A stretch of 52,874 nucleotides of DNA, taken from IMG/VR virus record IMGVR_UViG_3300023284_000636, positions 1 through 52,874 of that record, one strand, 5' to 3'. This DNA comes from a virus (taxonomy: Duplodnaviria; Caudoviricetes). Numbering within the stretch: position 1 is the stretch's first letter; every line of letters begins with the position of its first letter. The position numbers and the translations under genes are program-made. Below the pieces are notes generated by a model, which saw nothing but the letters and a program-made list of their open reading frames with translations, was not told where the DNA came from and did not search any database. This document shows, in pieces, positions 4,993 to 32,954 of this stretch.

Positions 4993-5871
4993 TTACTTCC
5001 CGTTTAGAGTTTCTTCAAGTTTTGTTCTCCAGTCTTCGCCATACTTTTCATAGAGTGTTAGCATCCAATGCAATGCAACTGCTTGTTCGTCTTCTGCTTT
5101 TTTGGCAACTTTATATATTCCAAGTTCGTGTAATCTTCTTGCTATTCCAGCCACAACGAAGTTTGGCCTTCCAAGTATAAATCTAACCTCATCGTCTAAT
5201 TTTGGTGTGTTCATTTGCTTTCTTTCTCCTTTAAGGCACGCCTGATTTTACGGGCTGTTTGCACGTCTGTTAAAATTGTCTGTTCGCCCCTACCCTTTTT
5301 ATAGACCGTTATTCTAATTTGTCCATCGTCACGAAAACAGATATATAATTCACTCATTTGCTTTTTTTCTCCTCGTATTTATGTGGGTATAAAATTTTAT
5401 CGTGACACTCTCTACATTCAACCCACAATCCCCGTATTTTATTTGGTAGTCGTTTCGCCAATGTTTTAAAACATACTCCACAAACAAGCGTCATTTGCTT
5501 TCTTTATCCTTCTTGTTTTTTGTGCTATCTTGTTTGGCTGCCTCCTGGAGACCTGGAAGAGTGATCCGGCCACTGTCTGCCATGGCCAGGCGTATCGCAG
5601 TGTTTAGAATCACTGTATAATAATCGTCCTCATGGACTTTAGGGAGAAGCCGAGCTTTAACGGCATAGTTTTGTTCGGCGGCGATCAGAGCATACAGAAC
5701 AACCCGATCGAATGGAATTGCTGCCAATATTTTCTCTTGTTTAAGTCGCCGCGCCGTTCTATCTTGAAGGGCTCGCTGCATTGCTTCTTTAGTCTGGGAA
5801 TAGGTGACCACTCCCAAACACAAGAAAAGAATGAGAACCATGATCGGGGTCGCAGTGAGTAGCTTCTTCAT
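4993..5871 (-). other. Four small coupled ORFs (5871-5491, 5494-5351, 5357-5211, 5214-4993) joined by the junction repeat
   Basis: Three of the four start inside an AGGA(G/T)AAA(G/A)AAAGCAAATG repeat; 5871-5491 has a signal-peptide-like N-terminus. Confidence 0.7.
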
Positions 5872-6452
5872 GTTTCAACCTCCCGGTTAAGTGGTTTATA
5901 TAAGTGGCTATTCTCGTATATGTGCTTCCATTTTCTTGAATTGCAACTTTTACACAACGGTTGAATGTTTTCTATGTAGTCGGTTCCTCCTTCTGATAGA
6001 GGTGAAATGTGGTCTTTTGTAAGAACTGCGCTTTTTCCGCAATCGGAACACCGATAGCCATACGCTTTTTTTAATTCTTGCCATTGTTTTAATGTATGGC
6101 TACCGCTTGCTTCCTTTTCTCTTGCGTATCGTCTTGCTTTAAGATGTGCTATATTTTCCGGGTGATTTTTACAATAATTTCTATGATAAATCTGTTTTGA
6201 TTCTCCCCTTTTTCTCACACCCCTATAGGCGTTTTGATTGTAAAACGGTAGCGTTTTAACATAATCCTTATAGCATTTCATTGAGCAGAAATGAGTTTTA
6301 CTTTTTCTATAATGTGATGGGATTGTTTTTGATTCCTCGCCACAATAATCACAATAAAAATATATCGGTCTTGAATTTGCCAATCCAATTTTTCTTTTTG
6401 TTTCATCCGAATGTTTGTGTCCAGACTGAAATCCTTTTACTCCTTTAGGCAT
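5868..6452 (-). CDS. HNH endonuclease with NUMOD3 and zinc-ribbon motifs
   Basis: GHKHSDETKRKIG (NUMOD3); CSDC..LTKDHISPLSEGG..NIQPLCKSCNSRK. Confidence 0.88.
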   Translation of the reverse strand: MPKGVKGFQSGHKHSDETKRKIGLANSRPIYFYCDYCGEESKTIPSHYRKSKTHFCSMKCYKDYVKTLPFYNQNAYRGVRKRGESKQIYHRNYCKNHPENIAHLKARRYAREKEASGSHTLKQWQELKKAYGYRCSDCGKSAVLTKDHISPLSEGGTDYIENIQPLCKSCNSRKWKHIYENSHLYKPLNREVET

Positions 6453-6453
6453 T

Positions 6454-6852
6454 CTATTTTTCCTCAATAAGATTGCCATGTTCAAATATGTTGCCGATGA
6501 CTTCATAAGAGTCACACGTTTCAGTTATAGCGTGATGATGATTTTTGCTTCTTGTCCAGTATCCAGCATCCTCGTAAAAAACTTCTCCAATATATTCCCC
6601 ACAAACCACTGCGTCATCTCCACATGGTTTCCAATATTCTTTCACAAGATCCCCCTCATAAATCTCTTTGCCGTTTTTGTCCAATAGGCCGGTGAATTGC
6701 ATTAAATTGAAATCGTCTTCGTGCCATATCCACTTGTGACCTCGAACCGGTCGAGCTAATTCCTGAATTTCAAAATTCTTCAAATCTATTTGGTGAACAT
6801 CTATCATTCTCGATTCACTAACAATCCATGCCCTAAATTTAATTGGTCTCAT
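6454..6852 (-). CDS. YopX-family phage protein (copy 2)
   Basis: MRPIKFRAW...MQFTGLLDKNGKEIYEGD...EVIGNIFE. Confidence 0.9.
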   Translation of the reverse strand: MRPIKFRAWIVSESRMIDVHQIDLKNFEIQELARPVRGHKWIWHEDDFNLMQFTGLLDKNGKEIYEGDLVKEYWKPCGDDAVVCGEYIGEVFYEDAGYWTRSKNHHHAITETCDSYEVIGNIFEHGNLIEEK

Positions 6853-6878
6853 TGTTTTTATATCCTGTTTTAAATAGT

Positions 6879-7355
6879 TTAAAAAGGGAGTTTCTCTGCA
6901 TATTCTTGAACCGATACTTCTGGTGTTGGCGGATGATCGAGACTCGAATCTTTAGGATCTCGGCCTTCTTTCCCAAAAACTTCTTCATCACATTTAATTT
7001 CCACAACCCTGAGAGCTCTTATAAATTCTTTTCTTTGTTCTTTGCCGAGTATACAAGCCCAAACAATTGCATCATCGACATAAAGCGAAGCGTGCAGCCA
7101 TTCTTTTGGGTAAGTTTCCCTATCCATATTCCTATATCTTACAAATTCTTCATAGTCCTGGAGTAGATTAGGAGTATCCTGGTTTATCCAGTGCCAGCCA
7201 CACAGCCCGGATTCTGGGCCGCGGTCTACGTGTTGGGCAAGCATTTGGCAGCGCCGGCCAGCGGTTCGAAACATACACAAAGATTTCTTGAGGAAGATTG
7301 CGTATTTCTCTGCTTGGGTTGCAGGAGAGTCTGGTTTGTCTTTTTTAAGGCTCAT
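6879..7355 (-). CDS. Hypothetical protein
   Basis: 158-aa ORF in minus-strand operon. Confidence 0.6.
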   Translation of the reverse strand: MSLKKDKPDSPATQAEKYAIFLKKSLCMFRTAGRRCQMLAQHVDRGPESGLCGWHWINQDTPNLLQDYEEFVRYRNMDRETYPKEWLHASLYVDDAIVWACILGKEQRKEFIRALRVVEIKCDEEVFGKEGRDPKDSSLDHPPTPEVSVQEYAEKLPF

Positions 7356-7356
7356 T

Positions 7357-7554
7357 TTATTTGATCAAAAATTTAAGCAAATCTTCTTTTTTTATTTCTA
7401 GAGCAACTACGGTTGGATTTGGGTTGTCTGTGTCATTCACTATTTTGACCAAAGATGCCAATTTACTGCCAGAAATAGCGCCAAGCGTAAAGTGATCGTG
7501 TGGAACTTCTGGTTTAAATATAAGCCGATCTTTTTCCACTAATAGCTTCATCAT
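7357..7554 (-). CDS. Hypothetical protein
   Basis: ORF coupled to neighbours. Confidence 0.55.
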   Translation of the reverse strand: MMKLLVEKDRLIFKPEVPHDHFTLGAISGSKLASLVKIVNDTDNPNPTVVALEIKKEDLLKFLIK

Positions 7555-7928
7555 TTCACCAAAAATTTAGATACAGTTTCTAAAGTGAATTTATCGATAT
7601 ATCCGCCATTCGTTCTGAGTGCTTCACTTACTTTTTTCATAGCTTCGCTTATCTGGTCATCGTCAAAATTGGCGAGGTCTGTTGCAGGGGTTACGTTTCG
7701 TTTTAAAAATATATTCCATTGGCCACGAGTCTTGTATTCTCCATTAATTTTTAACTCGTCTGCGTAGTGTCCTATTATTTGAATGTGTCTTTGTTTGCTA
7801 GACCAGCAGCCCTCCTTAAACTGTTTCGCGGTCATGGGTTCGTTAGGGTCTTTCTTGATTAGCCTCCTGGTTGCCGGCGCTTTTTCAAGTTTTACTTTCA
7901 GGTTGTTTCCGCAATGGGGGCAGTGCAT
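7551..7928 (-). CDS. Zinc-ribbon protein, possibly replication-initiator related
   Basis: CPHCG at N-terminus; C-terminal helical segment ending FTLETV; AAGGAG RBS; function inferred only. Confidence 0.45.
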   Translation of the reverse strand: MHCPHCGNNLKVKLEKAPATRRLIKKDPNEPMTAKQFKEGCWSSKQRHIQIIGHYADELKINGEYKTRGQWNIFLKRNVTPATDLANFDDDQISEAMKKVSEALRTNGGYIDKFTLETVSKFLVK

Positions 7929-7964
7929 GGGTTTTTCTCCTTTTGTTTTATGTCATCGCATAAA

Positions 7965-8496
7965 TCAAGGTCTAAGTAGCTTTAGGTTATCAATAGCCCA
8001 ATAAACCATTCCACTTTTCCCCCAATTTTTATGACGGTGGTTCTCATTAATTCTAAGATAAGACAAACTGTTTCCAAACAGACCTCCCGGGACTATCCTG
8101 AGGACTATCCTTTGCTTGTCCACCATCATGTAAAAAAACAATCCACACCGGCCACGTCGTACTATCGTCTACTTTTAAATAATCATTATAGTGTTTAATA
8201 TCTATTCCTGTGACCCACTTTTGAGTTATTCTGTGCCAGCTAAAAGCTGTTTTGTATTTAGCTTCAATCCAAAGCGTTTTTTCACCTTTAAAGATCAACA
8301 TATCTGGTGCAATTAACATATCGTCTGGTAAAAATAATTGTGGCCCCTTACCAGTATCTATAACTTTTTCATAGATTGGTAAAATGGTGAACCCTTTATC
8401 TTTGAACCATTGTGCTATTTTACCCTCAGCAGTTTGGCCTATTTTTAATTGATCCTTAAAGGAGGTCACAACAAAAACCATATTTTTCAAACTCAT
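7965..8496 (-). pseudogene. PD-(D/E)XK-like nuclease with apparent +1 frameshift near 8086-8091
   Basis: APDMLIF...WIEAK motif; the +1 frame continues GLFGNSLSYLRINENHRHKNWGKSGMVYWAIDNL to TGA at 7965. Confidence 0.6.
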
Positions 8497-9355
8497 TTTC
8501 AAAATTTGTAGAATCACCAAAATATAAAAATGCCTGGCCTTGTAACGGAGTAGAGATTTCTTTGTTTGGAGACCAATATTTTATTCTGGTGTTCGGAAAA
8601 CAAATAGAAGATGCACATTTAGTCATAAATTGAAACCAAGCGGTTTCAGTTGCATTATTCACCAATACTATTCCTTCAGAAATGTCCCTATTATTAAAAT
8701 GCTGGGTGAATTTTTCCGTAAACAATCCAATCAGATCAGATGAATATGGTGGATTCATCCATGCTTTACCAAACCATCCTTCAGTCAACCCATTTGTTTG
8801 TGAAGTAAAATATTTACTAGCCTTGACAATTTCATTTGCTTTTTCTGATGAGGCAGGATCGAGATCGATTTCTCCCAAAACAATCCTAACGGATTCAATA
8901 TACTTTTTTGGTGTATACCATTCATTGTCACCAGAATTGTATGAAACATGCGGTTTTCCTGAAATCTCAAGCCTTAATCTGTTGCGCGACCAGTTGTTTT
9001 CTTCCGCTTTTTGTAAATATTTATCTTGTTTGTTCTCTGGTAAAGCCGCAACTTCATAATGATGACTCCAACTCAAGTTGTCACGCCGGCGTGACATTTC
9101 AATTCTTCCTGATACCCAAGCAGAATTTCTAAGTCCGCCATAACTATGATCTGTTTCGTCCAATGCTTGAGAATATTTCTCACCATATTTATTTTCGCCA
9201 AAATTTAGCCAATCGCCAAGCCACCACAAAACACATTTATTAACTTGCTTTAAGAAATTACCGATCCCCATCCATTCATCAAAATTAATATCGCTTTGTA
9301 TTACAAGAGAGGTTTCAGTTAATTTGCACTTATGCAGTTTTACAAGTTCATTCAT
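8456..9355 (-). CDS. Phage DNA N6-adenine methyltransferase with N-terminal WWLGDW domain
   Basis: NEWYTP, IDLDPAS, WMNPPYS, VLVNNATETAWFQ motifs. Confidence 0.88.
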   Translation of the reverse strand: MNELVKLHKCKLTETSLVIQSDINFDEWMGIGNFLKQVNKCVLWWLGDWLNFGENKYGEKYSQALDETDHSYGGLRNSAWVSGRIEMSRRRDNLSWSHHYEVAALPENKQDKYLQKAEENNWSRNRLRLEISGKPHVSYNSGDNEWYTPKKYIESVRIVLGEIDLDPASSEKANEIVKASKYFTSQTNGLTEGWFGKAWMNPPYSSDLIGLFTEKFTQHFNNRDISEGIVLVNNATETAWFQFMTKCASSICFPNTRIKYWSPNKEISTPLQGQAFLYFGDSTNFENEFEKYGFCCDLL

Positions 9356-9445
9356 TTAGTTCCTCACGTTGGTGAAGGTTTGAGTCGGAAAACCCCCACA
9401 AAGGAGGGTCTCACGTATGGAGCCAGGCCATCGCGTTGTAACCCG

Positions 9446-9754
9446 CTACTCACAGTTCAAACGGTTGCCAGCCAGTCGCGTTGTTTCAACCTTGCTGCTT
9501 TCGCCAACGGGGGTTCTTATGTATTTACGCTGGTATATATATGATGGATCGATTTTAATATGGACATTACCGATACCACAAAATGGACACTTCATGCTAT
9601 GATAAGAATGAATCATTTCGAGAGTTGCCCATTTAATTTCTCTTCTCTCGCAATTGGCATTTGTGCAATAAACTTCTCTTTTATTGTCAACAAAACATAA
9701 TTGCCCACCATAGGAATGATGTGCTCCACATTTCCAGCAATATCGTTTTTTCAT
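9446..9754 (-). CDS. Hypothetical Cys-rich protein
   Basis: CWKC, CTNANC and CPFC motifs. Confidence 0.5.
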   Translation of the reverse strand: MKKRYCWKCGAHHSYGGQLCFVDNKREVYCTNANCERREIKWATLEMIHSYHSMKCPFCGIGNVHIKIDPSYIYQRKYIRTPVGESSKVETTRLAGNRLNCE

Positions 9755-9850
9755 AAATAAACCATCATATTTTTAAAATGTTGCATCCTTTGTTTAGCTG
9801 ATGTGCCTCGGCTTACCGCATCCCCGTGCGTCTGAAACCGAAAACAAAAA

Positions 9851-9952
9851 ATGCCTATTGTAGGGATACTCTCGGCTTTCGGTCTACCTTGGGAGAAATC
9901 CCGAAATATCCGAAAGCACCCAACAATAGGCACTTCGTTTTTTCCCAAGGTA
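9851..9952 (-). ncRNA. Structured RNA motif, copy 1 (long hairpin plus leader-loop pseudoknot)
   Basis: tgcctattgt/acaataggca stem; gctttcgg/ccgaaagc; loop taccttggga complementary to tcccaaggta; lies downstream of a sigma70-like promoter. Confidence 0.6.
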
Positions 9953-9971
9953 TAATTTTTACTAACATAAC

Positions 9972-10000
9972 AATGTAAAATTTTATTTTTATAAAAGCAA
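9972..10000 (-). promoter_or_regulatory. Sigma70-like promoter TTGCTT-17-TACATT
   Basis: Consensus match with 17-nt spacer in AT-rich intergenic DNA. Confidence 0.55.
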
Positions 10001-10023
10001 CATAAATTTTGTAGACAACAAGC

Positions 10024-10209
10024 TTACCGCTTTTTGTTTGCGTCTGTTACCGAAGACTTTGCTTGTTGTTTGGTATTTTCGAGGCAAGTGTTTTCTATTA
10101 CTCCGTCCCAATATCCAACCAAATAATCAGTTGTGGCACTAAATCCACATTTACACTTATATCCTTTATCGGTTGATTCCATGTCTAAAAGACATTTGGG
10201 ACATTCCAT
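10024..10209 (-). CDS. Small zinc-ribbon protein
   Basis: CPKC...CKCG; GAGGTG RBS. Confidence 0.6.
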   Translation of the reverse strand: MECPKCLLDMESTDKGYKCKCGFSATTDYLVGYWDGVIENTCLENTKQQAKSSVTDANKKR

Positions 10210-10257
10210 TGTTTCACCTCACGTTTTTAGAACAACGGCAAAGAGACCGTAAAAATA

Positions 10258-10421
10258 TGGGCAAGGACAGGGATTTGACGAGAAGGAGAGTCTCATACGC
10301 CGACAAGCTCTCCATTGCGTATTCTGAGTCTTTTTTGTTACTCGTATAGTCACCCTGCATACCTGAGATTTTTTAGTCCCAAGCTCACAAGAAAGCGTCT
10401 ACCTATTCCGCCACCTTGCCC
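10258..10421 (-). tRNA. tRNA-Leu-like element with ~73-nt insertion in the T loop and a degenerate anticodon arm
   Basis: GGGCAAGG/CCTTGCCC acceptor; Leu-type D arm TGGCGGAATAGGTAGACGC; T arm GCAGGG-T[insert]TCAAAT-CCCTGT. Confidence 0.55.
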
Positions 10422-10538
10422 ATAAACTAAAAACAGGAAGTCTAAGTATCGTGCGCCTACTCAAGATAGAATCTGCTACGGCCTGTCGCACGCAATTCTG
10501 TCCAATCCCATCTTATAGACTACCCGTTTAAATTGAAA

Positions 10539-10649
10539 ATGCCCGACTTTGTTGGACACTCTCGGCCTTCGGTCGAAAGCTCCCTGGAAGAAGAAAAACC
10601 TCAAACCGAAAGCACCCAACAAAAACGGGCACTTTATATTTCCAGGGAA
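10539..10649 (-). ncRNA. Structured RNA motif, copy 2
   Basis: Same actctcggcYttcggtc and ccgaaagcacccaaca cores as copy 1; loop tccctggaa complementary to ttccaggga. Confidence 0.6.
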
Positions 10650-10673
10650 TTTTCTAATTTTAACTACATCCAT

Positions 10674-10702
10674 AATATAAAAATATTCGATTAAAATGTC
10701 AA
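10674..10702 (-). promoter_or_regulatory. Sigma70-like promoter TTGACA-17-TATATT
   Basis: Near-consensus -35/-10. Confidence 0.65.
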
Positions 10703-11112
10703 GAGAATTTACACGGATGTTTTTTGTGCTCAAAAAAATATTTATTCGCTTTCTTGAATTTTCCATTTACCCAAAAACCCCACTTCCTTTTTTGGGGACC
10801 TGTTAAGAGCAAAGTCCAGACAGGACCGCCAGCACTCACACTCACAAAATGTTTATGTTCTGCTTTTCTGAAAACAATATCACCAGCTACTAAAATTTCA
10901 CCTTTGCTTTGCTCTGTATTTGTTATGTCTGCATACCAGCCCTTTAAGACAAATATGATAAAATTCCATGGATGATCATGCAAGTGCCTATCATCATCTG
11001 AAGCTGTCCATTTATGCAATCGAATTGCGAACAACCCAAAATTAATTACCCAACGTCTCATATACGGACATTCTTGCCGCCCTAAATATTCACCCCATCG
11101 TATAAAATTCAT
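10699..11112 (-). CDS. Cupin-fold phage protein
   Basis: PYMRRW..RLHKW..SDDDRHLHDHPWNF..HKH..WTLLLTGP..WGF pattern. Confidence 0.75.
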   Translation of the reverse strand: MNFIRWGEYLGRQECPYMRRWVINFGLFAIRLHKWTASDDDRHLHDHPWNFIIFVLKGWYADITNTEQSKGEILVAGDIVFRKAEHKHFVSVSAGGPVWTLLLTGPQKRKWGFWVNGKFKKANKYFFEHKKHPCKFS

Positions 11113-11114
11113 AG

Positions 11115-11189
11115 TACGGGCGGCGGGATTCGAACCACGCGATCTCTGCTATGTAAAACAGCGCTCTTGACCAACTGAGCTACACCCGT
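11115..11189 (-). tRNA. tRNA-Val(TAC)-like, irregular anticodon arm and bulged T stem
   Basis: ACGGGTG/CGCCCGT acceptor, GCTC/GAGC D stem, CTGTT-TTACAT-AGCAG arm, GGTTCGAATCC. Confidence 0.7.
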
Positions 11190-11201
11190 GTAGTTTTTTT
11201 G

Positions 11202-11299
11202 TAGCGGTGACGGGATTCGAACCCGCAAGGCCACCAAAATGATTTAAAACAAATCAGGAGTTTTAAATCTGGTAGGTCTGCCGATTGCCTCACACCGCC
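11202..11299 (-). tRNA. tRNA-Leu(TAA) with 22-nt insertion 3' of the anticodon
   Basis: GGCGGTG/CACCGCT acceptor, CCAGA/TTTGG anticodon stem, TT-TAA-A, GCGGG-TTCGAAT-CCCGT; insert at about 11240-11261. Confidence 0.75.
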
Positions 11300-11309
11300 G
11301 ATTCATTTT

Positions 11310-11540
11310 TTAGGTTGATACCGGATCGCCCTGTCCGGCGAGTCGTTTTAAATCTGCGATTCTATAACATTTCCTTAGCCGACCATTGAATGCGGTTTTA
11401 AAACTTTTAATTACATTTCTTTTTTCCCAGCTTATTAACGTAACTTTACATATTTTCAGTATTTCAAGCGCACCATCCATGTCAGTGATCTCTATATTAT
11501 CGTCGCCGTTTTCCCAGTTTTTTATACTAAACTCACTCAT
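11310..11540 (-). CDS. MerR/excisionase-like HTH DNA-binding protein
   Basis: ALEILKICKVTLISWEKRNVI...RKCYRIADL pattern; first gene of leftward operon. Confidence 0.6.
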   Translation of the reverse strand: MSEFSIKNWENGDDNIEITDMDGALEILKICKVTLISWEKRNVIKSFKTAFNGRLRKCYRIADLKRLAGQGDPVST

Positions 11541-11549
11541 AATGAACTG

Positions 11550-11614
11550 AATATAAAACATTCTTTTCAAAAAAGCAAACTTTTTCTTGACTTTCTTAAA
11601 AATTATATTATCTT
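11550..11614. promoter_or_regulatory. Divergent sigma70-like promoter pair
   Basis: Minus: TTGCTT-17-TATATT (11578-11550); plus: TTGACT-16-TATCTT (11587-11614); at the strand switch. Confidence 0.6.
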
Positions 11615-11624
11615 AAATATTGTC

Positions 11625-12140
11625 ATGAAGAAAATAAAACTTACAAATTCTTCTATAATGGCATTGGTTGATGATTCAGATTTTGATTGTATTAATAATT
11701 TTTATGAATGGAGATTAACTTCACACGGATATGTTTTTTCTTGGCTGGGTAAAGAAAAAAAAGATTTAGGAATGCACGATCTTATTATGTCCACAGCTAG
11801 CGGTTTTATCATCGATCATAAAAACCATATAACTCATGATAATCAAAGAAAAAATCTAAGAATTTGTACTAAACAACAAAATTTATTTAATCGGAAAATA
11901 AATAAACATAGATTTTTTTCTAAATATAAAGGTGTTGTGGCTGGATATAGCAAAAAATTTAGAACACAAATCGGAGTAAATAAAAAAGTAATTTATATCG
12001 GTGAATTTGAAACAGAATTTGAGGCCGCTCTTGCTTATGATGATGCAGCATTGAAATATTATGGAGAGTTTGCCTATTTAAACTATCCAGAACAAGACTA
12101 TATTTTTGAAGTCAACGATGATTTTTTAAGAAGTTACTAA
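11625..12140 (+). CDS. HNH-AP2 homing endonuclease
   Basis: ALVDDSDF..IDHKNH..DNQRKNLRICT..N; SKYKGV..YIGEF..EAALAYDDAA..YGEFAYLN. Confidence 0.9.
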   Translation: MKKIKLTNSSIMALVDDSDFDCINNFYEWRLTSHGYVFSWLGKEKKDLGMHDLIMSTASGFIIDHKNHITHDNQRKNLRICTKQQNLFNRKINKHRFFSKYKGVVAGYSKKFRTQIGVNKKVIYIGEFETEFEAALAYDDAALKYYGEFAYLNYPEQDYIFEVNDDFLRSY

Positions 12141-12160
12141 AAAGCTGAGTAACAAATCCA

Positions 12161-12601
12161 ATGAAAAGAAAATCCTTACACATGGAAACGACCTCGATTT
12201 CTGTTATTAAGACTTGTGCAGAAATTGAAAGTGTTCTTATTAAACATAATGTAACTGCGATCATGAAAACTATTGATAACGGAAACGTTTCTGGAATGCA
12301 ATTTGTTTATAATGAGAACGGACAATCCATCCCAATTAAAATTCCCTTCCGCTGGCAATCAATTCAAAAGTTGGCTCAATCTGGTAAGACTGGTTATAAT
12401 AAAACCGCTGATGAGGCGCAAGCAAAGAGAGTGGCAGCAAGATTAGAATTGCGGTGGATTCAATCCATGCTTGCAAAAGTTGAGGTTGGCATGGCCGATA
12501 TGATCGAAATATTTATGCCTTACATAATGGTAAATGATGGCCAGTCGTTTTATGAAAAACTATCAAGTGAAAACTTTAAAGGACTTTTAACAAGTGGGTA
12601 A
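12161..12601 (+). CDS. Phage hypothetical protein
   Basis: QAKRVAARLELRWI..IFMPYI pattern seen in phage early regions. Confidence 0.65.
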   Translation: MKRKSLHMETTSISVIKTCAEIESVLIKHNVTAIMKTIDNGNVSGMQFVYNENGQSIPIKIPFRWQSIQKLAQSGKTGYNKTADEAQAKRVAARLELRWIQSMLAKVEVGMADMIEIFMPYIMVNDGQSFYEKLSSENFKGLLTSG

Positions 12602-12610
12602 AAAAACAAA

Positions 12611-12694
12611 ATCCCCCGACTTGGTCTGTTCTCCCTTCCCGGTTCATGTTACTCAGCAGTTCCATGCGATCGGAGTCGGGGATATTTTTTATTT
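12611..12694 (+). terminator. Long hairpin followed by T-tract
   Basis: ccccgactt-ggtc / gatc-ggagtcgggg stem, then tttttattt. Confidence 0.55.
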
Positions 12695-12708
12695 GATTAG
12701 GAGAAAAC

Positions 12709-12933
12709 ATGAATAATATGCCGAGATTTATTAAATTACACGATAGGAATGAACACCAATTTATTAGTGATTTGTATATTCAAGTTGATTCTATTGAACG
12801 TTTTTATCATTTAGAAGAAGAAGGTAAACACCGTAATGTTGTTCATATTAAAAATTCTTTAGATGTTCACCATGTTAACGAAACTCCATCAGAAATTAAA
12901 GAATTAATATTAAAAGTAATTCAAGCCTATTAA
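12709..12933 (+). CDS. Small hypothetical protein (FlbD-like pattern)
   Basis: FIKL..IQVDSIERF..VNETPSEIKELI. Confidence 0.55.
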   Translation: MNNMPRFIKLHDRNEHQFISDLYIQVDSIERFYHLEEEGKHRNVVHIKNSLDVHHVNETPSEIKELILKVIQAY

Positions 12934-12957
12934 ATATAAAAAGATAGGAGGTAACTC

Positions 12958-13821
12958 ATGACAAAAGACAAAAACCAAGAAGTCGCGGTCGTCGATAAGA
13001 AGACCCCGTCCAGAAGCAAAAAGACACAGCCGACGAAACCAGTGACTATGGAGCAGGTTTTATATCATGCTATCGACATGAATACCGATCCTAACGCCCT
13101 TGAGAAGTTGTTCGAACTTTATGAGCGAGATGAAGCAAGAAAAGCCGAAAAGGCATTTAATGTTGCAATGGCTGCGTTCCGGGCTGAGTGTCCTATCGTA
13201 CAGAAAAAAACGGAAGGTGCCCAAAATCAAGCAAAGACCGAGATTCTCTGGAAATATGCAGACCTCTCAGACATAGAACTCGCGATCAAGCCTCACCTAG
13301 CCAGGAACGGTCTATCTTATACCTGGGACTCCCGAGACATAACCCGCGGGGAGAAACCAGGAAAAGAGACAATTTGCTGGGTCTCTCATATCTTAGGTCA
13401 CAAGTCTTCCGGAACTTTTACCTCATCTATCGATGCCGGTACTAGTGCGATGAACGCAATTCAAAAAGAGGGATCAACGGTCGAATATGGTCGACGTTGG
13501 AGTCTCAAGCTTGCCCTAGGAATCGTGGTTGCAGGTGAAGATGATGACGCCATCTCCGCCATGGTCAAGAAAAATGGCAAAACAGTCGAGACGATCACGA
13601 ATGCCCAAACAAAGCTACTCGAAAAACAGATCGGCACCGCTGACGAAACACTCTATAAAGCAATCTTGACGGAATATAATGTCACCGAGCTCTACAAAAT
13701 CCCGGCCGACAAACTTGCAGACTGCAAGGAACGGATCGCTAATTACAAACGAGCCAAGACGGAACGCCAGAAGACCAAAGCCGCTAAGGACAATCAGACT
13801 AACATGGAGATCGCAACATGA
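12958..13821 (+). CDS. ERF-family single-strand annealing protein
   Basis: KYADLSDI..L..NGLSY..H..GH..IQKEGSTVEYGRRWSLKLALGI..EDDDA. Confidence 0.85.
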   Translation: MTKDKNQEVAVVDKKTPSRSKKTQPTKPVTMEQVLYHAIDMNTDPNALEKLFELYERDEARKAEKAFNVAMAAFRAECPIVQKKTEGAQNQAKTEILWKYADLSDIELAIKPHLARNGLSYTWDSRDITRGEKPGKETICWVSHILGHKSSGTFTSSIDAGTSAMNAIQKEGSTVEYGRRWSLKLALGIVVAGEDDDAISAMVKKNGKTVETITNAQTKLLEKQIGTADETLYKAILTEYNVTELYKIPADKLADCKERIANYKRAKTERQKTKAAKDNQTNMEIAT

Positions 13822-14045
13822 GTTTTCAACAACACCTTGACGAAGATGTGGAACACGCCATTATTCAGTTGTGTGATGCTTTGTGTCAATGGGAACGGGG
13901 CACTGGTAGGGAGTCTGTTTTGATTGTTAGGGAGCCCGGATTTGCATTTCGTGCGTTGTCTGGCAAACCCATTCCTGATAGTTGTGATGATCTTGATGAC
14001 ACACACTTTTTGAAAAATATTGATGCACAGGAGCAGGGAGAATGA
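13818..14045 (+). CDS. Hypothetical protein
   Basis: ATGA-coupled on both sides. Confidence 0.6.
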   Translation: MSFQQHLDEDVEHAIIQLCDALCQWERGTGRESVLIVREPGFAFRALSGKPIPDSCDDLDDTHFLKNIDAQEQGE

Positions 14046-14704
14046 AGCTCGAGCAAACCTTCTACAAAAAGCCGATCTTCTATGATATGGAACAGCAAAG
14101 CCCGGAGTGGTTCCTAGAACACATTGGCCTAATCACGGCATCAAAAATGGCACTAGTCAAATCGTCTGACACTGGCCGCAAGAAATATATGCTGCAGCTG
14201 ATAGGCGAACGATTGAGTGGCCTCCCAAAAAGAGAGAGATGGACTGGTGGTAAAAGTACAGATTATGGAAATGAATATGAAGGGCAAGCCCTGGCTTGCC
14301 ATGAACTCGAACAGGGTCTCTCGATCAAGCGCGTCGGGTTTATTAAGTTTTCCCCGGATTTGGGATTCAGTCCTGATGGACTGATTGACGATGATGGCAT
14401 GGTCGAGGCGAAATCCAGATATCCTCACACTCAACTTGCGACTATACTCAGCGGACAAATGCCGCCTCAAGATAGATGGCAAGTTCAGTTCAGCCTTTGG
14501 GGTCTCGGTCTCAACTGGTGCGATTATGTGAGCTTTTGTCCTGACATTAAGACAAGCGCAAGGTATTGGTATAAAAAAATCCCTCGGGATCCCATTACCA
14601 TAACTACGATCCGGAATGAGGTTACCAGGTTTCTGAACGAGATGACGTCACTCGAGGCCTCTTTAAATGGGAGTGCAATCGCCTCCCGGGAGCTGTTGAA
14701 ATGA
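14042..14704 (+). CDS. YqaJ/lambda-exonuclease-like protein
   Basis: EQQSPEW..G.ITAS..GNEYE..FSPDGL..EAK..QVQ..CDYVSF. Confidence 0.88.
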   Translation: MKLEQTFYKKPIFYDMEQQSPEWFLEHIGLITASKMALVKSSDTGRKKYMLQLIGERLSGLPKRERWTGGKSTDYGNEYEGQALACHELEQGLSIKRVGFIKFSPDLGFSPDGLIDDDGMVEAKSRYPHTQLATILSGQMPPQDRWQVQFSLWGLGLNWCDYVSFCPDIKTSARYWYKKIPRDPITITTIRNEVTRFLNEMTSLEASLNGSAIASRELLK

Positions 14705-15012
14705 TAGGACATATAAATATTGATGTAGATAGGGTTAAATGGGAGAAGATTAGGAAGCTTGTGGCGATAGAACATGAACATAGCGACGGAATGAACGAAT
14801 GTTCTATTTGTGATATGCCAATGGTTGATTCCATTATCGATCATATGTCTATAGATGCTTGTTTGATTGTTAAATATTATGAGGCATTAGTTCAAGCTGT
14901 TAAGGTAATTAAGGCGTGGCATGGCGATGAAATGTTTGACATTTATTATAAAAAATCGCCAGAAATGGAACTGATTCAGAATGCATTCGATTTTTCTAAT
15001 GTCAAAAATTAA
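14701..15012 (+). CDS. Hypothetical protein
   Basis: Coupled ORF. Confidence 0.55.
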   Translation: MIGHINIDVDRVKWEKIRKLVAIEHEHSDGMNECSICDMPMVDSIIDHMSIDACLIVKYYEALVQAVKVIKAWHGDEMFDIYYKKSPEMELIQNAFDFSNVKN

Positions 15013-15054
15013 CGTCATAGTCAGACTCGACTGGCTCATGAAGGCCAATTAGAT

Positions 15055-15477: not shown

Positions 15478-15498
15478 AGGAGTTCTAGTAAATTGGCA

Positions 15499-16315
15499 AA
15501 GGAGAAAGAAACCAAATGAGTGAACCAAGAGTTTTTAAAAGTTTCAACATTCATAAGGCTTACGAAAAACTGTTATGCGAAAGGCGCGACCTTCAAGTTG
15601 AAAACAAAGCCCTCAAAGAAAGGGTAGAATTTGAAGGAAATGTGAATAAACGTCTATTTGTCAAAAACGAAGTCCTCCAAGAAAGCAATAATGAACTTCT
15701 TAATCTGTTGCCCGATTCGGCTACTGACGATGATTGGGACTGGTGCTGGAATGAACTTTTTGATAATAGCCAACAAGCTGTAAAATTGGGTCGGCAAAAA
15801 GCCGAAGCTCTAAAGGAGAAAGAAAGCAATGGGTGAACTAAGCATACTTGAGAAACTGAAGAGTTTTATTGCGGGGATTGCCTTTAAATTGTTTCTTTGG
15901 GGCAACGAAACGACTCAAGAAGTTTATTGGAATTTAATATATGAGCAGGAAGCCTTGTTAAAGGAGAAAGAAAGCAAATGAAAACTACAACTTGCAATAA
16001 TTGCGGAACAACTTCAAACACATTAACCCCGGGAAATGGTTGTCATGCTTGTTTGGCTGGTTGGATGGAGGAGAAAGAAACCAAATGAATTCAATGTATG
16101 GACTCGAAAGAGAAAATGCAGAGCTTAAAAAGCTTAGGGAATATCAGACTTCAATTATAATTGATTTGAACTCAGAAAACAAAGCTCTCAAAGAAAGCAG
16201 GGATGAATTATTGAGTGCTCTAAGAGTCGCAGCACAAGAAGATGATGGATATGTATTTAATGACACCATCAAAAGAGCTAAGTCCATAAAGGATAAAGAA
16301 AGCAATCACCCTTAA
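15499..16315 (+). repeat. Array of four small ORFs (15516-15836, 15829-15981, 15978-16088, 16085-16315) bounded by five copies of the junction repeat
   Basis: AGGA(G/T)AAAGAAA(G/C)CAA(A)T at 15499, 15813, 15961, 16069, 16289. Confidence 0.85.
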
Positions 16316-16330
16316 CCAAAGGAGGCAAAA

Positions 16331-16939: not shown

Positions 16940-17123
16940 ATAAAATTAAAATATAAGGAGGATTTATTATGGGAACTTCAGTATCGGAAGGTAAATACAG
17001 ATCATTTGAATTAGCATCTGCAATACGCGCAAATTCTAATTGTAGAGTTGAACCTTTGATCGAAGATGCCAAAGTTATTTATCAATATATTTTTGAAAAT
17101 ACCAAAGAACCGGATCAAAATAA

Positions 17124-23083: not shown

Positions 23084-23101
23084 AAAACAAAGGAGGTAAT
23101 T

Positions 23102-24911: not shown

Positions 24912-24913
24912 AT

Positions 24914-26464: not shown

Positions 26465-26465
26465 A

Positions 26466-30328: not shown

Positions 30329-30919
30329 AAATAATCATCAAAATACTAAGCTATTTCCTCATATTCAGATGGGGCAGACTTAGGACACTTAGTCAGCGGC
30401 ATTGGTTGAAAAAAGATCATGCGCGCTATAATAGGCCAACCCTATGACGTGCAGATGGCATGTATATGGCACAGATGGAACCGTTCAGATGTGTCGGTGT
30501 GATATCGTCGGGGCTGGTAGTTTCTGCAACGATCACCAGATCGAGTTCGATCATAGATGGGATCACAGTGATGCGGATCCAATCGAGGATTTATATGAAG
30601 CGATGAAAGTCTTTTCACCAACCGATGAGGCGAAGAAATACTGGGAGCAGAAAATTTCACAGCATAAAAAACAGAAAACGCAATGACAGAAATTTATGTA
30701 ATCATCAATGAAAACGAACTTAGGGGAGTCGCTATTTTAGATAAAGAAACCTTGATCAAGTTTAATGAGGAAGGCTCTCTGGAGGGTAGACAAGTTTTGA
30801 TTTGTTCAACAGAAAAGTCTTTTGTTATAAAGGCTGGGCAGCTAAAAGAAAGAGAATATAAATTTGAATTAATGCCATGAGATTCTAATCTATATAGGAA
30901 GACGAAGGAGGTGGCGACA

Positions 30920-32332
30920 ATGATCATAAATGACCTTATCAATGCCGGTCGAGCCGCTGGAATCACGGATCAAATAAGGGGACGCCGGAATTTCAGGACA
31001 TTAAAGGGGACAACCGGGACCGAAAACTTCTCTGGACAGATCATAAGTGAGGACGAGAATAAAGAATGGGACGACCCATCCAAGTCTGTCGAAAATGTCG
31101 ACATAATGAGGAAGTCCTGCGTCAGAGTTCGTCAGAGCATGATGATCCTCAAAACCCCGATCCTGGGGTCGACTATTAGGATCGAGCCAGCGAGTGAAGA
31201 CAATGTTGACATAAAAATTGCTGAGTTCGTGGAAAAAAATCTATTCGACAGTCCGTTCTTCAGATGGGACGATGTACTCAGCCAGCAATTGACATATCTT
31301 GACTTTGGTCATTCTATTCTCGAAAAAGCATACAAACGGCGTGAAGGCCAAATATGGCTGTCTAATCTTGAGTTCAGAAAACAGAAAACAATCTTCGAGT
31401 GGGATGCCCCTATGGGACAACTTAAAGAAGTGCGTCAGACTGACTTTAGTGTAACCTCTGAACGTGTTCCTCAGCCAATGCCGGCTGAACAGATTGTCCT
31501 TTCTACATACGAGAGGGAAGGAAACAATTTTGCGGGGTTTCCTGCAGTGCGCCCAGCATGGATCAACTGGAAGGCCAAGATGTTTCTGATCAAGGGTGAT
31601 ATGGTTAACTATGAGAGATTTGGAATGGGGATTCCAATGATAAAAAACTTGAAATCAGGAGATATACCTGATGAAGCTATTGATGCTATAAAAGAGTTAA
31701 GATCAAATTCAGAAGGATTTGTTGCTCAGACCAAAGATTGGGAATTAAGCATCTTTGGCGGAGGAGAACAAAGAGGGAATACTGTGATTGATATGGTCAC
31801 TTGGCATGATCATCAAATTGTCTTCAACGTAATGGGGAACTTCATGACTAAGGGTGAAGGTGCGACTGGTAGTTTTGCACTGACCAAGGTCGGTGCCGAT
31901 ATGTTTTTCTGCGGCGTTGAACGAGAAGCAAACCGCATCGAGAACATCTGGAACGAGCCGTCAGGCCTTATGGCGCAAATCCCCCAGCTGGTCGAATTTA
32001 ACTTCCCTGGAGCTAAGTCTCCAAAACTTCGGATTGAGAACCTTAAATTCGACGACCTTGATGGATTCGCATCTAGGCTCGAGAAGTATGTCAGGGCTGG
32101 TGCTTTTGATTCTACCGATGATATAAAGCGGTGGATTAGGGAAAGAGAAAAGGCTCCACTGCTGGGACTCGAAGAGGAGCAGTTAGATGACATGGCCAAT
32201 ATCGCCCCGACCATAAAAAGAATCAATGGCGGCCGGCCTTATATCTTACAATATTCCCGCGGGCGGGGTGGTCGTATACTAAGACTTCAAGGAGTTAAGA
32301 AAACGACACCAAGTATCAGAGTAGCAGCTTGA
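30920..32332 (+). CDS. Portal protein (Mu gp29/DUF935-like)
   Basis: FGHSILEK, ERFGMGIP, GSFAL, LVEFNF..P motifs; position between terminase and head genes. Confidence 0.85.
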   Translation: MIINDLINAGRAAGITDQIRGRRNFRTLKGTTGTENFSGQIISEDENKEWDDPSKSVENVDIMRKSCVRVRQSMMILKTPILGSTIRIEPASEDNVDIKIAEFVEKNLFDSPFFRWDDVLSQQLTYLDFGHSILEKAYKRREGQIWLSNLEFRKQKTIFEWDAPMGQLKEVRQTDFSVTSERVPQPMPAEQIVLSTYEREGNNFAGFPAVRPAWINWKAKMFLIKGDMVNYERFGMGIPMIKNLKSGDIPDEAIDAIKELRSNSEGFVAQTKDWELSIFGGGEQRGNTVIDMVTWHDHQIVFNVMGNFMTKGEGATGSFALTKVGADMFFCGVEREANRIENIWNEPSGLMAQIPQLVEFNFPGAKSPKLRIENLKFDDLDGFASRLEKYVRAGAFDSTDDIKRWIREREKAPLLGLEEEQLDDMANIAPTIKRINGGRPYILQYSRGRGGRILRLQGVKKTTPSIRVAA

Positions 32333-32802
32333 GACAAGTTACAGACGAGATGGTTAAGACGATAACGAATGGGGGTGGCATTCACTTCGATGGATTCATT
32401 TTTAGTATAGAAGCTGGATATTTCCTTCATCCAAAGAGTCCGCAGAATTTGGAGACCATATTGCAAGCCGTTTCGAGCGACGGGAAAACAATACATACCC
32501 GGGGTGTTGTGTTAGCCAGTAATAATAAGATCAAGATAGCAATTCAGGATATTTTGCAGGACATACATTCCAGCATGCATCTCCCAGAGTCAGTATATAA
32601 TAATATAATTCGCCTCGATACCGAACACAGATGTCAAAATCAAAAGTGTAACCCAGCTGGCAAGCGTCGTCTTCTATTCGTTTCAGCAGGCCCTATGGTG
32701 CAAGCTATACAAATAAAATGCAATGGATGTGGATTGCTTAACACCTTCTGGAAGAACCGGATCGACTTCGATGAGTATGGTGCATTGAGGATGACAAAAT
32801 AA
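32329..32802 (+). CDS. Protein with C-terminal Mu Com-like zinc ribbon
   Basis: RC..C...RLLF...IQIKCNGCGLLN. Confidence 0.6.
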   Translation: MRQVTDEMVKTITNGGGIHFDGFIFSIEAGYFLHPKSPQNLETILQAVSSDGKTIHTRGVVLASNNKIKIAIQDILQDIHSSMHLPESVYNNIIRLDTEHRCQNQKCNPAGKRRLLFVSAGPMVQAIQIKCNGCGLLNTFWKNRIDFDEYGALRMTK

Positions 32803-32822
32803 AATAATTTAGAGGATTGATT

Positions 32823-32954
32823 ATGGGCATTCAATCAGAACATTTCCCTAAAGAATTTAACGAACTTTTCAAACTCTATGATGAACCGGATAGAGACAAA
32901 AAGGATGTTGCATATCGTATTTGGTGTGCTCTAAAGGAGAAAGAAAGCAAATGA
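32823..32954 (+). CDS. Small ORF ending ALKEKESK at a junction-repeat copy
   Basis: MGIQSEHF...WCALKEKESK; repeat at 32934-32953. Confidence 0.55.
   Translation: MGIQSEHFPKEFNELFKLYDEPDRDKKDVAYRIWCALKEKESK

Follow-up and report, generated by a model that had tools for sequence, protein, structure and literature searches.

A short repeat carrying a ribosome binding site at the junctions of mostly unrelated small genes in a Caudoviricetes phage

Small-gene arrays and the sequence at their junctions

The DNA analysed here, referred to as the window, is the whole stretch of 52,874 nt at positions 1 to 52,874 of IMGVR_UViG_3300023284_000636 (Duplodnaviria; Caudoviricetes), a record that is 75% complete. 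Small ORFs at three of its loci are bordered by copies of one 20-nt sequence (Table 1). When both strands were searched with up to three mismatches allowed, AAGGAGAAAGAAAGCAAATG gave eight matches, all with two mismatches or fewer, and a ninth copy, at 16289, reads AAGGATAAAGAAAGCAATCA, with three of its four mismatches at its 3' end and no ATG. The copies form a discrete family: 3, 2, 3, 0 and 1 of them have 0, 1, 2, 3 and 4 mismatches, and background matches in the window begin at five. No match at up to three mismatches occurred in 100 dinucleotide shuffles, and 30 shuffles gave mean counts of 0.03 at three, 0.03 at four and 0.67 at five mismatches. An earlier note on this DNA had listed nine copies at three loci and proposed an enrichment test against shuffled ribosome binding site (RBS) regions; all nine were recovered, eight at the positions it gave (its '16069' is 16068), and enrichment over the shuffles is clear. 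The motif is also the largest direct-repeat family that a repeat search found in the window. As the note had claimed, identity extends beyond an RBS, over 23 nt at 15807 and 32928; moreover, 15959-15983 matches 32932-32956 at all 25 nt, and 24 nt are common to three window copies.

Table 1. Genes and motif copies at the three loci, with the recombination genes of the window
Feature	Position	Strand	Remarks
Locus 1	4993..5871	-	chain of four translationally overlapping ORFs
73-aa ORF	4993-5214	-	locus 1
Motif copy, exact	5212..5231	-	KEKESK tail of 48-aa ORF, start of 73-aa ORF, ATGA overlap
48-aa ORF	5211-5357	-	locus 1
Motif copy, 2 mismatches	5355..5374	-	EEKKSK tail of 46-aa ORF, start of 48-aa ORF, ATGA overlap
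46-aa ORF, Cys-rich	5354-5494	-	locus 1
Motif copy, 1 mismatch	5492..5511	-	KDKESK tail and stop of 126-aa ORF; SD-like GGAT and ATG of 46-aa ORF, ATGA overlap
126-aa ORF, membrane-type N-terminus	5491-5871	-	locus 1
HNH/NUMOD3 endonuclease gene	5868-6515	-	precedes locus 1, joined by another ATGA overlap
ERF-family single-strand annealing protein, candidate recombinase	12958..13821	+	PF04404, 46.6 bits (cut-off 25)
YqaJ-like exonuclease, putative Erf partner	14042..14704	+	PF09588, 34.3 bits (cut-off 22)
Weakly NinB-like ORF	15055-15477	+	stop 21 nt before 15499 copy
Locus 2	15516..16315	+	array of 106-, 50-, 36- and 76-aa ORFs
Motif copy, 1 mismatch, intergenic	15499..15518	+	SD and ATG of 106-aa ORF
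Motif copy, 2 mismatches	15813..15832	+	KEKESNG tail of 106-aa ORF; ATG moved one base, begins 50-aa ORF; ORF overlap 8 nt
Motif copy, exact	15961..15980	+	KEKESK tail of 50-aa ORF, start of 36-aa Cys-rich ORF
Motif copy, 2 mismatches	16068..16087	+	EEKETK tail of 36-aa ORF, start of 76-aa ORF
Degenerate motif copy, 4 mismatches, no ATG	16289..16308	+	KDKESNHP tail of 76-aa ORF
43-aa ORF (locus 3)	32823-32954	+	
Motif copy, exact	32934..32953	+	KEKESK tail of 43-aa ORF; ATG opens 7-codon ORF
7-codon ORF	32951-32974	+	stop overlaps ATG (32971) of patatin-like gene

All nine copies share the sense of their own local operon, and eight lie in early or accessory regions. Eight form the last codons of a small ORF, and seven provide the start of an ORF of 36-106 aa. 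The description in the earlier note of an element that ends one ORF and starts the next holds for these tails and starts, but not for the intergenic copy at 15499 or for the copy at 16289, which starts nothing; the gene that follows the latter (16331) uses an AAGGAGG site of its own.

In the public collections scanned, stretches with the exact 20-mer numbered 2 among viruses, 17 among metagenomes and 9 among genomes, and in unrelated bacteria and contigs it occurs singly as an RBS. At up to three mismatches, 27 of the 28 loci have one copy and only the viral contig L010, with four, has more; a 24-fold degenerate pattern matched 24 viral contigs, again with L010 as the only one matched more than once. 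Judging by a portal gene with 61% amino acid and 67% DNA identity and by methylase segments with 72-92% DNA identity, L010 is a true relative of the window phage. Its four copies are 0-2 bases off the consensus and lie between mostly unrelated minigenes, so that relatives, as far as these contigs indicate, have the same sequence adjoining different genes. If a strong generic RBS had merely recurred by chance, the phage being rich in AT and purines, this would account for the 20-mer serving singly as an RBS elsewhere, including the 27 single-copy loci, but such an explanation is refuted by the empty shuffles, the discrete mismatch spectrum and the restriction of multiple copies, across three collections, to the true relative L010; its probability is negligible.

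A nucleotide-level signal with a translation-type layout

Conservation was compared over 13 copies, nine from the window and four from L010. Twelve of the 20 positions are invariant, information drops sharply beyond the motif, and none of the 13 changed codons is synonymous. Given this and the non-coding copy at 15499, the motif is conserved as nucleotides rather than as a peptide. We nevertheless considered a functional C-terminal peptide, (A-L)-K-E-K-E-S-K, acting as a degradation, localisation or interaction tag with the RBS as a secondary feature. Translation of eight of the nine copies as a tail agrees with such a tag, as do the two codons before the motif, which read A-L or L-L in 4/9 window and 3/4 L010 copies and differ synonymously (GCC/GCT, TTA/CTA/CTT). 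Within the motif, however, substitutions change the encoded residues (K to E, E to D, S to T or I, K to N); in addition, the copy at 15499 lies between genes, homologues function although they have no such tail, and one homologue of the 126-aa protein, P0002, has the motif letters apparently read in another frame, all of which make a peptide tag very improbable.

The cassette proteins themselves have little in common beyond the tail. An all-versus-all comparison of 22 ORFs gave a clear relationship only within a coiled-coil family, comprising the paralogous 106- and 76-aa ORFs of locus 2 (31% identity over 80 aa, E value 2e-8) and the 70-aa ORF of L010 (5e-5 against the 76-aa ORF). A borderline pair, the L010 70-aa ORF and the 50-aa ORF (5e-4), has an alignment that takes in the shared tail, and every remaining pair shares just the tail; the unrelated small proteins that the earlier note had seen at the junctions are thus borne out, with the coiled-coil family as the exception. 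Among the 12 members of the 126-aa family, three end in (D/E)KE(S/T)K and seven stop directly after a conserved K(N)K, while P0002 ends in RKKANE. The tail occurs in one of three members of the 50-aa family, is absent from P0020, a homologue of the 48-aa ORF, and is present in both known members of the 106-aa coiled-coil family. Of the four families checked, three (126-aa, 50-aa and 48-aa) thus include members that lack the tail, which is not intrinsic to them.

These relationships also bear on whether the arrays are relics of tandem duplication, in which one gene with its tail and RBS was duplicated and the bodies diverged while the doubly constrained junction stayed. The paralogy of the 106- and 76-aa ORFs, which an internal repeat (D3) mirrors, the membership of the L010 70-aa ORF in the same family and the clustering of copies in arrays would fit this origin. 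Yet the remaining cassette ORFs, among them a membrane protein and Cys-rich mini-proteins, belong to unrelated types with only the tail in common, their homologues elsewhere lack the tail, which points to its acquisition rather than inheritance, and the copies lie at three loci and on both strands. We therefore regard duplication as improbable.

The position of the motif is that of a translation signal, although not of the usual kind in this phage. GGAG lies 10-11 nt from the start in six of the seven motif-led genes, compared with 1-10 nt (median 8) at the other starts with GGAG (36 of the 85 listed), and because of this longer spacing the motif is not the ordinary RBS of the phage. Of the 38 ATGA overlaps listed, five carry the motif and 33 have other sequence upstream; the 7-codon ORF at 32934 likewise begins in an ATGA overlap. 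At the motif junctions this stop-start overlap is combined with an SD sequence inside the upstream coding sequence, which is the layout of translationally coupled genes, and coupling is predicted. The 11-nt spacer is nearly invariant over the 13 copies. The junction 60-mers fold weakly in all nine cases (-0.7 to -8.1 kcal/mol, z -1.15 to +1.70), and the motif, nearly all purine, remains unpaired. No promoter-like site overlaps any copy, in a region with 47 such sites against 35.9 +/- 5.7 expected, and no terminator-like site was found at a copy.

Such features could mean that the motif is a purely translational, start-associated signal kept by selection because it sets or regulates the translation of a group of accessory genes. 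It might do so by way of coupling efficiency, as an unstructured leader of purines or by attracting an RNA-binding factor of the phage or its host, and gene turnover would then be ordinary gene-boundary mosaicism, with recombination independent of the motif. All copies are in the operon sense at a start or stop-start overlap, the spacer is conserved though an SD does not need it, the junction RNAs are unstructured (9/9), and the L010 copies keep to 0-2 mismatches despite a portal gene only 67% identical in DNA. On the other hand, the copies at 16289 (no ATG) and 32934 (a 7-codon ORF) lead no real gene, a 10-11-nt spacing is long for this phage and not obviously optimal, and no candidate regulator was found. 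We consider this explanation possible, but on the doubtful side.

Gene turnover and recombination genes

Relatives do not share one set of genes across the repeats. In a comparison at 80% likeness with metagenome contigs from other samples, relatives had loose ends at 5223, 15498 and 15824, among the 24 of 285 loose ends listed, and one joint, 5373 to 5516, among the 15 of 42 listed, drops the 46-aa ORF between two copies; three of the joints that touch the motif have sides of only 22-26 nt and may be spurious. At locus 3, the late-region relatives L039 and L040 lack both the 43-aa ORF and the motif, and the similarity of L040 to the window ends at 32804 and restarts at 32961. The coincidence of breakpoints with the repeat that the earlier note had expected is therefore present at these positions. 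Its resolution is low, however, and the same lists contain many breakpoints at motif-free gene boundaries, such as 12136, 12167, 12610, 14042 and 14704, so the coincidence is confounded with ordinary gene-boundary mosaicism. L039, L040 and L041 carry no copy of the motif and yet are highly mosaic; the motif is thus not needed for mosaicism here. The frequency of motif-free breakpoints favours a purely translational signal, which on its own, however, leaves the gain and loss of the junction by unrelated ORF families unexplained. No crossover inside the motif was resolved at base level in the relatives or in the metagenome contigs compared at 80% likeness. Molecules that join non-adjacent copies were not seen either; among the sequencing runs screened for the window, the best share of words was 0.08. 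The earlier note had also supposed that minigenes relocate, which is not supported, since none of the ORFs was seen at more than one locus.

The phage does encode the ERF/YqaJ pair to which that note had attributed the exchanges: PHROG matches agree with both assignments, and the gene for the annealing protein lies near that for the YqaJ-type exonuclease, as in Erf/YqaJ (SynExo) modules. The absence of an integrase that it had assumed also stands for the 75%-complete record, where a six-frame search matched neither PF00589 nor PF00239 (tyrosine and serine recombinases). In the part of PMC3945230 available, an Erf/Exo pair equals Red in activity on diverged repeats, and Redbeta has a minimal pairing segment of 23-27 bp. 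The 20-nt identity is below this segment, so that only the 24-25-nt identities found here reach it. Two further points count against exchange at the motif: direct repeats 107-314 bp apart would be expected to be unstable if recombination were efficient, and conservation between diverged phages is equally explained by selection on translational function alone.

Comparable systems and a proposed mechanism

Integron cassettes form arrays of small, promoterless, unrelated ORFs with a recurring site, attC, recognised by the integrase IntI. The motif arrays resemble them in this make-up; however, the 75%-complete record has no tyrosine or serine recombinase match, and the motif has no imperfect inverted repeat, does not fold and, unlike attC, sits within coding sequence and carries an RBS.

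The start-associated sequences (SAS) of Cluster K mycobacteriophages have a 13-bp consensus, 5'-GGGATAGGAGCCC, with up to two deviations allowed (PMC3203893, available in part). On that partial description, both are short asymmetric repeats in which an SD core is accompanied by further conserved positions, which in SAS, and perhaps in the motif, go beyond an SD able to pair with 16S rRNA; each is present many times per genome, always oriented the same way to the genes, and is rare outside its phage group. Both lie at starts of non-structural genes of varied families, sometimes with the upstream stop, and a given gene family may have the repeat in one genome and lack it in another. With nine copies in operon sense, seven of them leading ORFs of unrelated families, the motif resembles SAS in copy number, orientation and placement, and the translation-initiation role that the authors propose follows the same logic as a purely translational signal here (PMC3203893). 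The sequences and host groups differ, however, and the motif does not match the SAS consensus beyond an SD-type core. As far as the available text goes, SAS lie 3-7 bp before the start, are spread over half the genome and can bear an inverted-repeat extension (ESAS); the motif is 20-25 nt long with the start codon and ATGA overlap, has no such extension, is clustered in minigene arrays and, being mostly coding, gives unrelated proteins a common tail.

The PeSLs (promoter-early stem-loops) of T4-type phages are likewise repeated expression signals bordering small non-essential ORFs in variable regions (PMC2839356), and recombination between their copies accounts for the insertions, deletions and replacements that distinguish close relatives (PMC2839356, PMC4122927; both available in part). 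The notion that one element serves both regulation and crossing over would be the same, although PeSLs have experimental support, including mini-circles (PMC2839356), and the motif is known here from sequence. In the part of PMC2839356 at hand, PeSLs are transcriptional and intergenic, with a sigma-70-type promoter and a terminator hairpin, whereas the motif lacks a promoter or terminator match and a hairpin, overlaps coding sequence and is a candidate for translational action.

The motif may also belong with the short boundary sequences through which phages have long been proposed to exchange genes. In the modular theory of lambdoid phages, as partly summarised in PMC3029335, short conserved linker sequences are, like the motif, homologous border patches proposed as homologous-recombination sites that reassort modules. 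A lambdoid-style recombination module is present here too, with ERF, the YqaJ-like exonuclease and weak matches, in PHROG only, to the NinB/Orf and NinG/Rap families. In contrast to lambdoid linkers, the motif is one explicit sequence repeated nine times, confined to minigene junctions and absent from the borders of large modules.

Our favoured reading, to which we give about half our confidence, is that the motif is a lineage-specific portable junction for expression and coupling, whose 20-25 nt of homology are also available for minigene turnover. The module would span about 21-25 nt, with (T)A, AAGGAG, the 11-nt purine spacer AAAGAAAGCAA and then ATGA, and would carry both the final six codons and stop of the upstream minigene and the SD core, spacer and start codon of the next, so that the small accessory genes may be read as a translationally coupled chain, with a probable role of the spacer in translation. 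From the cassette system proposed in the earlier note, a motif reaching beyond the RBS and variable genes at its copies can be retained, and recombination at the motif is what we infer from them. Copies in one genome, or in relatives that infect the same cell, could recombine and so add, delete or exchange minigenes, with crossovers within the motif possibly catalysed by Erf/YqaJ, and every recombinant junction would be expression-ready from the outset. The copies probably arose by copying rather than convergence, and they are likely to derive from the 3' end of a gene of the small coiled-coil family together with the start region that follows it, because all four of its known members have the tail.

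Anatomy and conservation of the junction repeat

All nine copies of the junction repeat of about 20 nt described in the earlier note were recovered, eight at two mismatches or fewer and the copy at 16289 at four. They comprise minus-strand copies at 5212, 5355 and 5492 (locus 1), plus-strand copies at 15499, 15813, 15961, 16068 and 16289 (locus 2) and one at 32934, at the end of a 43-aa ORF (locus 3). The enrichment check that had been proposed was run with AAGGAGAAAGAAAGCAAATG, which gave eight matches in the window at up to three mismatches and none in 100 dinucleotide shuffles. There are 3, 2, 3, 0 and 1 copies at 0, 1, 2, 3 and 4 mismatches, and background begins at 5; 30 shuffles averaged 0.03 matches at 3 mismatches, 0.03 at 4 and 0.67 at 5. 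The copies are a discrete family, the largest direct-repeat family of the window. Most of the divergence of the 16289 copy, which lacks an ATG, is towards its 3′ end. The longest identity, of 25 nt, joins 15959–15983 to 32932–32956, and 24 nt of it are common to the 5212 copy.

Every copy is oriented sense to its local operon (9/9); no antisense copy was found in the window, so a base-pairing antisense partner within it is unsupported. Eight copies supply the final codons of an ORF, the exception being the 15499 copy, located in a 21-nt intergenic gap past the stop of the NinB-like ORF, and seven provide the start of an ORF of 36–106 aa. The 32934 copy starts an ORF of 7 codons, and the stop of this ORF overlaps the patatin-like gene's ATG at 32971, so that the chain of overlaps goes on at locus 3. 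The spacer of the motif is a tandem AAAG-AAAG; a contig of metagenome run X2 carrying a relative of the 73-aa ORF apparently has only one AAAG unit at 5223, which would give a 7-nt spacer.

We aligned the nine copies with four from a related viral contig (L010). Twelve of the 20 positions are invariant, and information falls to near zero by two bases outside either edge. Each of the 13 codon changes alters the amino acid (K to E, E to D, E to K, S to T or I, K to N). Given that random change would yield about one synonymous change in nine, the lack of any among 13 is no proof of nucleotide selection; it does exclude strong selection at the peptide level, against which the intergenic position of the 15499 copy also counts. 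In 7 of the 13 copies, the two codons ahead of the motif encode A-L or L-L with synonymous differences, so a bit of an ancestral protein tail may have moved along with the motif.

The motif also differs from the other start sites of the window. In six of the seven motif-led genes the distance from the end of GGAG to the start is 10–11 nt (the seventh carries GGAT), whereas among 85 hand-listed non-motif starts GGAG lies within 22 nt in 36, at spacings of 1–10 nt (median 8, none at 11). Where open frames of the coding strand overlap by ATGA, only five of 38 cases are motif junctions, and the other 33 have unrelated upstream sequence. This atypical spacing and the 33 dissimilar overlaps make convergence on an optimal site unlikely, and the sequences indicate that the copies are related by copying.

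None of the promoter-like or terminator-like sites falls on a copy, which rules out a transcriptional cassette of the kind formed by the promoter-early stem-loops (PeSLs) of T4-type phages. The 60-nt junction RNAs are all weakly folded (9/9; z from −1.15 to +1.70) with the motif unpaired, which rules out an attC-kind hairpin recombination site. Rfam returned two tRNAs across the window and nothing at the motif. For a frameshift site, we know of no slippery pattern common to the copies; an RNA-cleavage site was considered as well.

Occurrence of the motif and breakpoints in relatives

The exact 20-mer was found at 28 loci (2 viral contigs, 17 metagenome stretches, 9 genome stretches). In 27 of them there is a single copy at up to three mismatches, and these are ordinary ribosome-binding sites (RBSs) of unrelated organisms; more than one was present only in L010, which has four. 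A 24-fold degenerate pattern likewise matched 24 viral contigs, more than once only in L010. This 11.9-kb contig has its copies, at 0–2 mismatches, at its end and at intervals of about 200 bp, where they part ORFs of 27, 64, about 38, 70 and 68 aa. Its methylase segments share 72–92% DNA identity with the window and its portal 67% (61% in protein), by which we judge it a genuine relative of the window phage. At such divergence a neutral 20-mer should have accumulated several changes; thus, the motif is either selected or still exchanged between lineages. No copy was found in the 95.6-kb record that contains another of the contigs compared (L037), nor, at up to three mismatches, in three closer relatives (portal 77–81% identical in amino acids) that span 18.8–39.4 kb of the window.

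Mosaicism is typical of phage genomes, and gene content around the copies varies. At locus 3, similarity to the viral contig L040 stops at 32804, two bases past the stop of a 157-aa ORF, and is back at 32961, eight bases past the motif, with 356 bp of other sequence between in L040. The 43-aa ORF is absent from L040 and from a further contig, L039. The patatin-like gene is present in L040 (80% amino acid identity) and absent from L039, where other ORFs occupy 7400–8600. At the analogous place L040 has an RBS-like stretch matching 16 of 21 letters, followed by a 24-codon ORF with first codons like those of the 7-codon ORF of the window. That this stretch is an old shared motif, with a deletion on the window side, was rejected, as its alignment score of 20 was reached in 113 of 500 shuffles; we thus make no claim on how old the copy at locus 3 is. 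Another viral contig, L041, matches at 4097–5511 window positions 30899–31854 on one strand and 30899–31338 on the other, back to back, and several further segments in both orientations; it resembles a fold-back assembly artefact.

None of the metagenome runs contained the window or its array (best share of words 0.08), and diverged relatives occur in four marine or sediment runs, whose contigs were compared with 4500–17700 at 80% likeness, uncovered parts being uninformative. Three of the 24 loose ends listed (285 in all) fall inside a copy or on its border, at 5223, 15498 and 15824. Two of the seven listed joints with inserted letters are at copies: one, from 5373 to 5516, has 8 letters in place of precisely the 46-aa ORF that lies between two copies, and the other, from 15477 to 16072, has one end inside a copy. 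Among the 15 plain joints listed, three touch a copy at one end (15961, 15523 and 15982), with sides of 22–26 nt that may be spurious; there are 27 joints beyond those listed. Since the copies with a 5-nt margin make up only about 1.8% of 4500–17700, the listed breakpoints at copies exceed uniform expectation, in counts from runs picked using the array itself. Breakpoints also occur at ordinary gene boundaries (12136, 12167, 12610, 14042 and 14704). Conserved gene order across the repeats, or breakpoints away from them, had been named as evidence against the proposal; gene order is not kept and breakpoints do coincide with copies, but crossover in the motif is not separable from general gene-boundary breakpoints.

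Minigene proteins and their tails

Thirteen window ORFs and nine from L010 were compared all against all by blastp, the E-values being generous for a 22-sequence database. One clear family emerged, joining the 106-aa and 76-aa proteins (2e-8) and the 70-aa L010 protein to the latter (5e-5). The 70-aa protein and the 50-aa protein of the window are borderline (5e-4), with the shared tail within the alignment. In the remaining pairs, alignment is confined to the 7–8 tail residues.

The 126-aa membrane-type protein has 11 database homologues, with a conserved D-S-T-K-N-K near the end. Three of the 12 members (the window protein, P0005 and P0009) carry the tail (D/E)KE(S/T)K, and seven end within three residues of D-S-T-K-N-K. 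P0006 ends in QEKKE and P0002 in RKKANE, which would correspond to the motif letters read one frame over. Both homologues of the 50-aa protein depart from it directly ahead of the tail. The end of the homologue P0017 is, letter for letter, the translation of the unrelated sequence after 15944 in a metagenome contig. P0020, a homologue of the 48-aa protein, has no tail; a further match of the same ORF, P0019 (662 aa with low-complexity repeats), was set aside as spurious.

In the coiled-coil family, all four known members have the tail (the 106-aa and 76-aa proteins, the 70-aa L010 protein and P0014), and the junction probably arose as the 3′ end of this family plus a downstream start, then spread. 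P0014 (154 aa, a relative of 15516–15836) continues from its tail, IKEKTTK, for 38 residues in frame into a Cys-rich segment, which looks as if a junction stop had been lost, fusing two minigenes.

Possible roles, known systems and genome setting

At the RNA level, the anatomy suggests that the motif, lying within the end of the upstream gene, would act as an open, purine-rich region for initiation, and a ribosome ending at the TGA of ATGA would be placed to begin the next minigene. A purely translational motif is possible but rather unlikely. At the DNA level, the copies offer one another 20 nt of identity, up to 24–25 nt for three of them. De Paepe and colleagues cite a minimal efficient pairing segment of 23–27 bp for Redβ versus 31–34 bp for RecA, and the Erf/Exo pair of another phage is there equal to Red in activity on diverged repeats (PMC3945230). 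By this measure, recombination at the longer identities is plausible for a phage that encodes an Erf/YqaJ pair itself. A crossover within the motif would leave tail, stop, RBS and start all intact, and such junctions would account for unrelated genes sharing the motif and for families with and without it. We favour, with moderate confidence, this dual use as translational junction and as homology for minigene turnover. Chance, set against the empty shuffles, a peptide tag, against which the codon changes and the 15499 copy count, and duplication relics share whatever these two readings leave.

The cassette interpretation in the earlier note is partly supported: the junction copies, the variable neighbours and the lack of a detected integrase stand, and exchange driven by Erf/YqaJ at the copies is plausible. 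An integrase-free minigene cassette system in which the junction is both the preferred Erf/YqaJ annealing site and a common RNA operator appears doubtful. In such a system, co-infecting relatives would capture, lose and exchange minigenes, every recombinant junction being in frame and coupled from the outset, and a single factor would control the translation of all the accessory genes together, as a regulon.

The finding belongs with start-associated and boundary repeats. The closest known system in anatomy is the start-associated sequence (SAS) of Cluster K mycobacteriophages, a 13-bp repeat of 11–19 copies with a Shine-Dalgarno core and unexplained conserved positions; it lies where non-structural genes of different families begin, sometimes includes the upstream stop, and its function is unknown (PMC3203893). 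In proposed dynamics, the closest are the PeSLs, expression signals bordering ORFans, among which recombination shuffles genes (PMC2839356). The motif differs from both in sequence, in including the stop–start overlap, in probably acting on translation rather than transcription, and in being translated, which gives unrelated proteins one tail. It agrees with a long-standing proposal, that of short conserved boundary sequences, to which the usual objection is that they are reportedly unidentifiable at most mosaic boundaries (PMC3029335). Here one explicit sequence of 20–25 nt lies at nine minigene junctions, nearly unchanged in a diverged relative beside differing genes, and with Erf/YqaJ in the same phage it is a natural substrate for measuring the shortest boundary sequence that drives gene exchange. 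The small class of start-associated repeats is thereby widened to an uncultivated phage group, with a repeat that is read as protein and stamps one tail on unrelated proteins. Beyond SAS and PeSL, a literature search, with most subscription journals and supplements outside its scope, returned no account of the motif or of a similar coding junction repeat.

The record is a linear IMG/VR entry of 52,874 bases with an estimated completeness of 75%, in which searches for tyrosine and serine recombinases found none. No close cultured phage was found: portal identity to cultured phages is at most 27%, and neither the array DNA (blastn) nor the 126-aa and NinB-like proteins (tblastn) matched any. Relatives among viral contigs sought with the NinB-like ORF, a 202-aa ORF and the 126-aa family alignment yielded none, and Erf relatives there reach only 32–34%.

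Gene blocks and annotated features of the viral record
Feature	Position	Strand or direction	Setting or evidence
Small-ORF block	1-4910	rightward	
Leftward block	about 4993-11570	leftward	
Long block	11625 to end	rightward	
Free-standing HNH endonuclease gene with NUMOD3 motif	5868-6515	minus	
tRNA gene	11115-11189	minus	Rfam 53.3 bits; called by ARAGORN, anticodon not named
tRNA gene	11202-11299	minus	Rfam 35.9 bits; no ARAGORN call; 98 nt
Free-standing HNH endonuclease gene, HNH_3 and AP2 domains	11625-12140	plus	
ERF-family annealing protein	12958-13821		early rightward region
YqaJ-like exonuclease	14042-14704		early rightward region
Weakly NinB-like ORF	15055-15477		early rightward region; PHROG matches only
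NinG/Rap-like ORF	17124-17612		early rightward region; PHROG matches only
DNA methylase, 739 aa, N6/N4 type	20864-23083	plus	
Portal	30911-32332		rightward block
Patatin-like protein/phospholipase gene	32959-33915	plus	just past portal region
Clp-type protease fusion, 768 aa	35243-37549	plus	

The Clp-protease domain of the 768-aa protein is probably the prohead protease, and its N-terminal stretch is a weak match to a DNA polymerase beta thumb domain. A weak intein-splicing match lies in the middle of the methylase (29.6 bits against a cut-off of 35.8); in L010, the homologous gene lacks segment 21327–22321 and holds a different insert at that place. The HNH/NUMOD3 gene and the gene that opens the locus 1 chain overlap at an ATGA. 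Both tRNA genes are placed where the leftward block ends, and the length of the second may reflect an insertion or a long-arm type.
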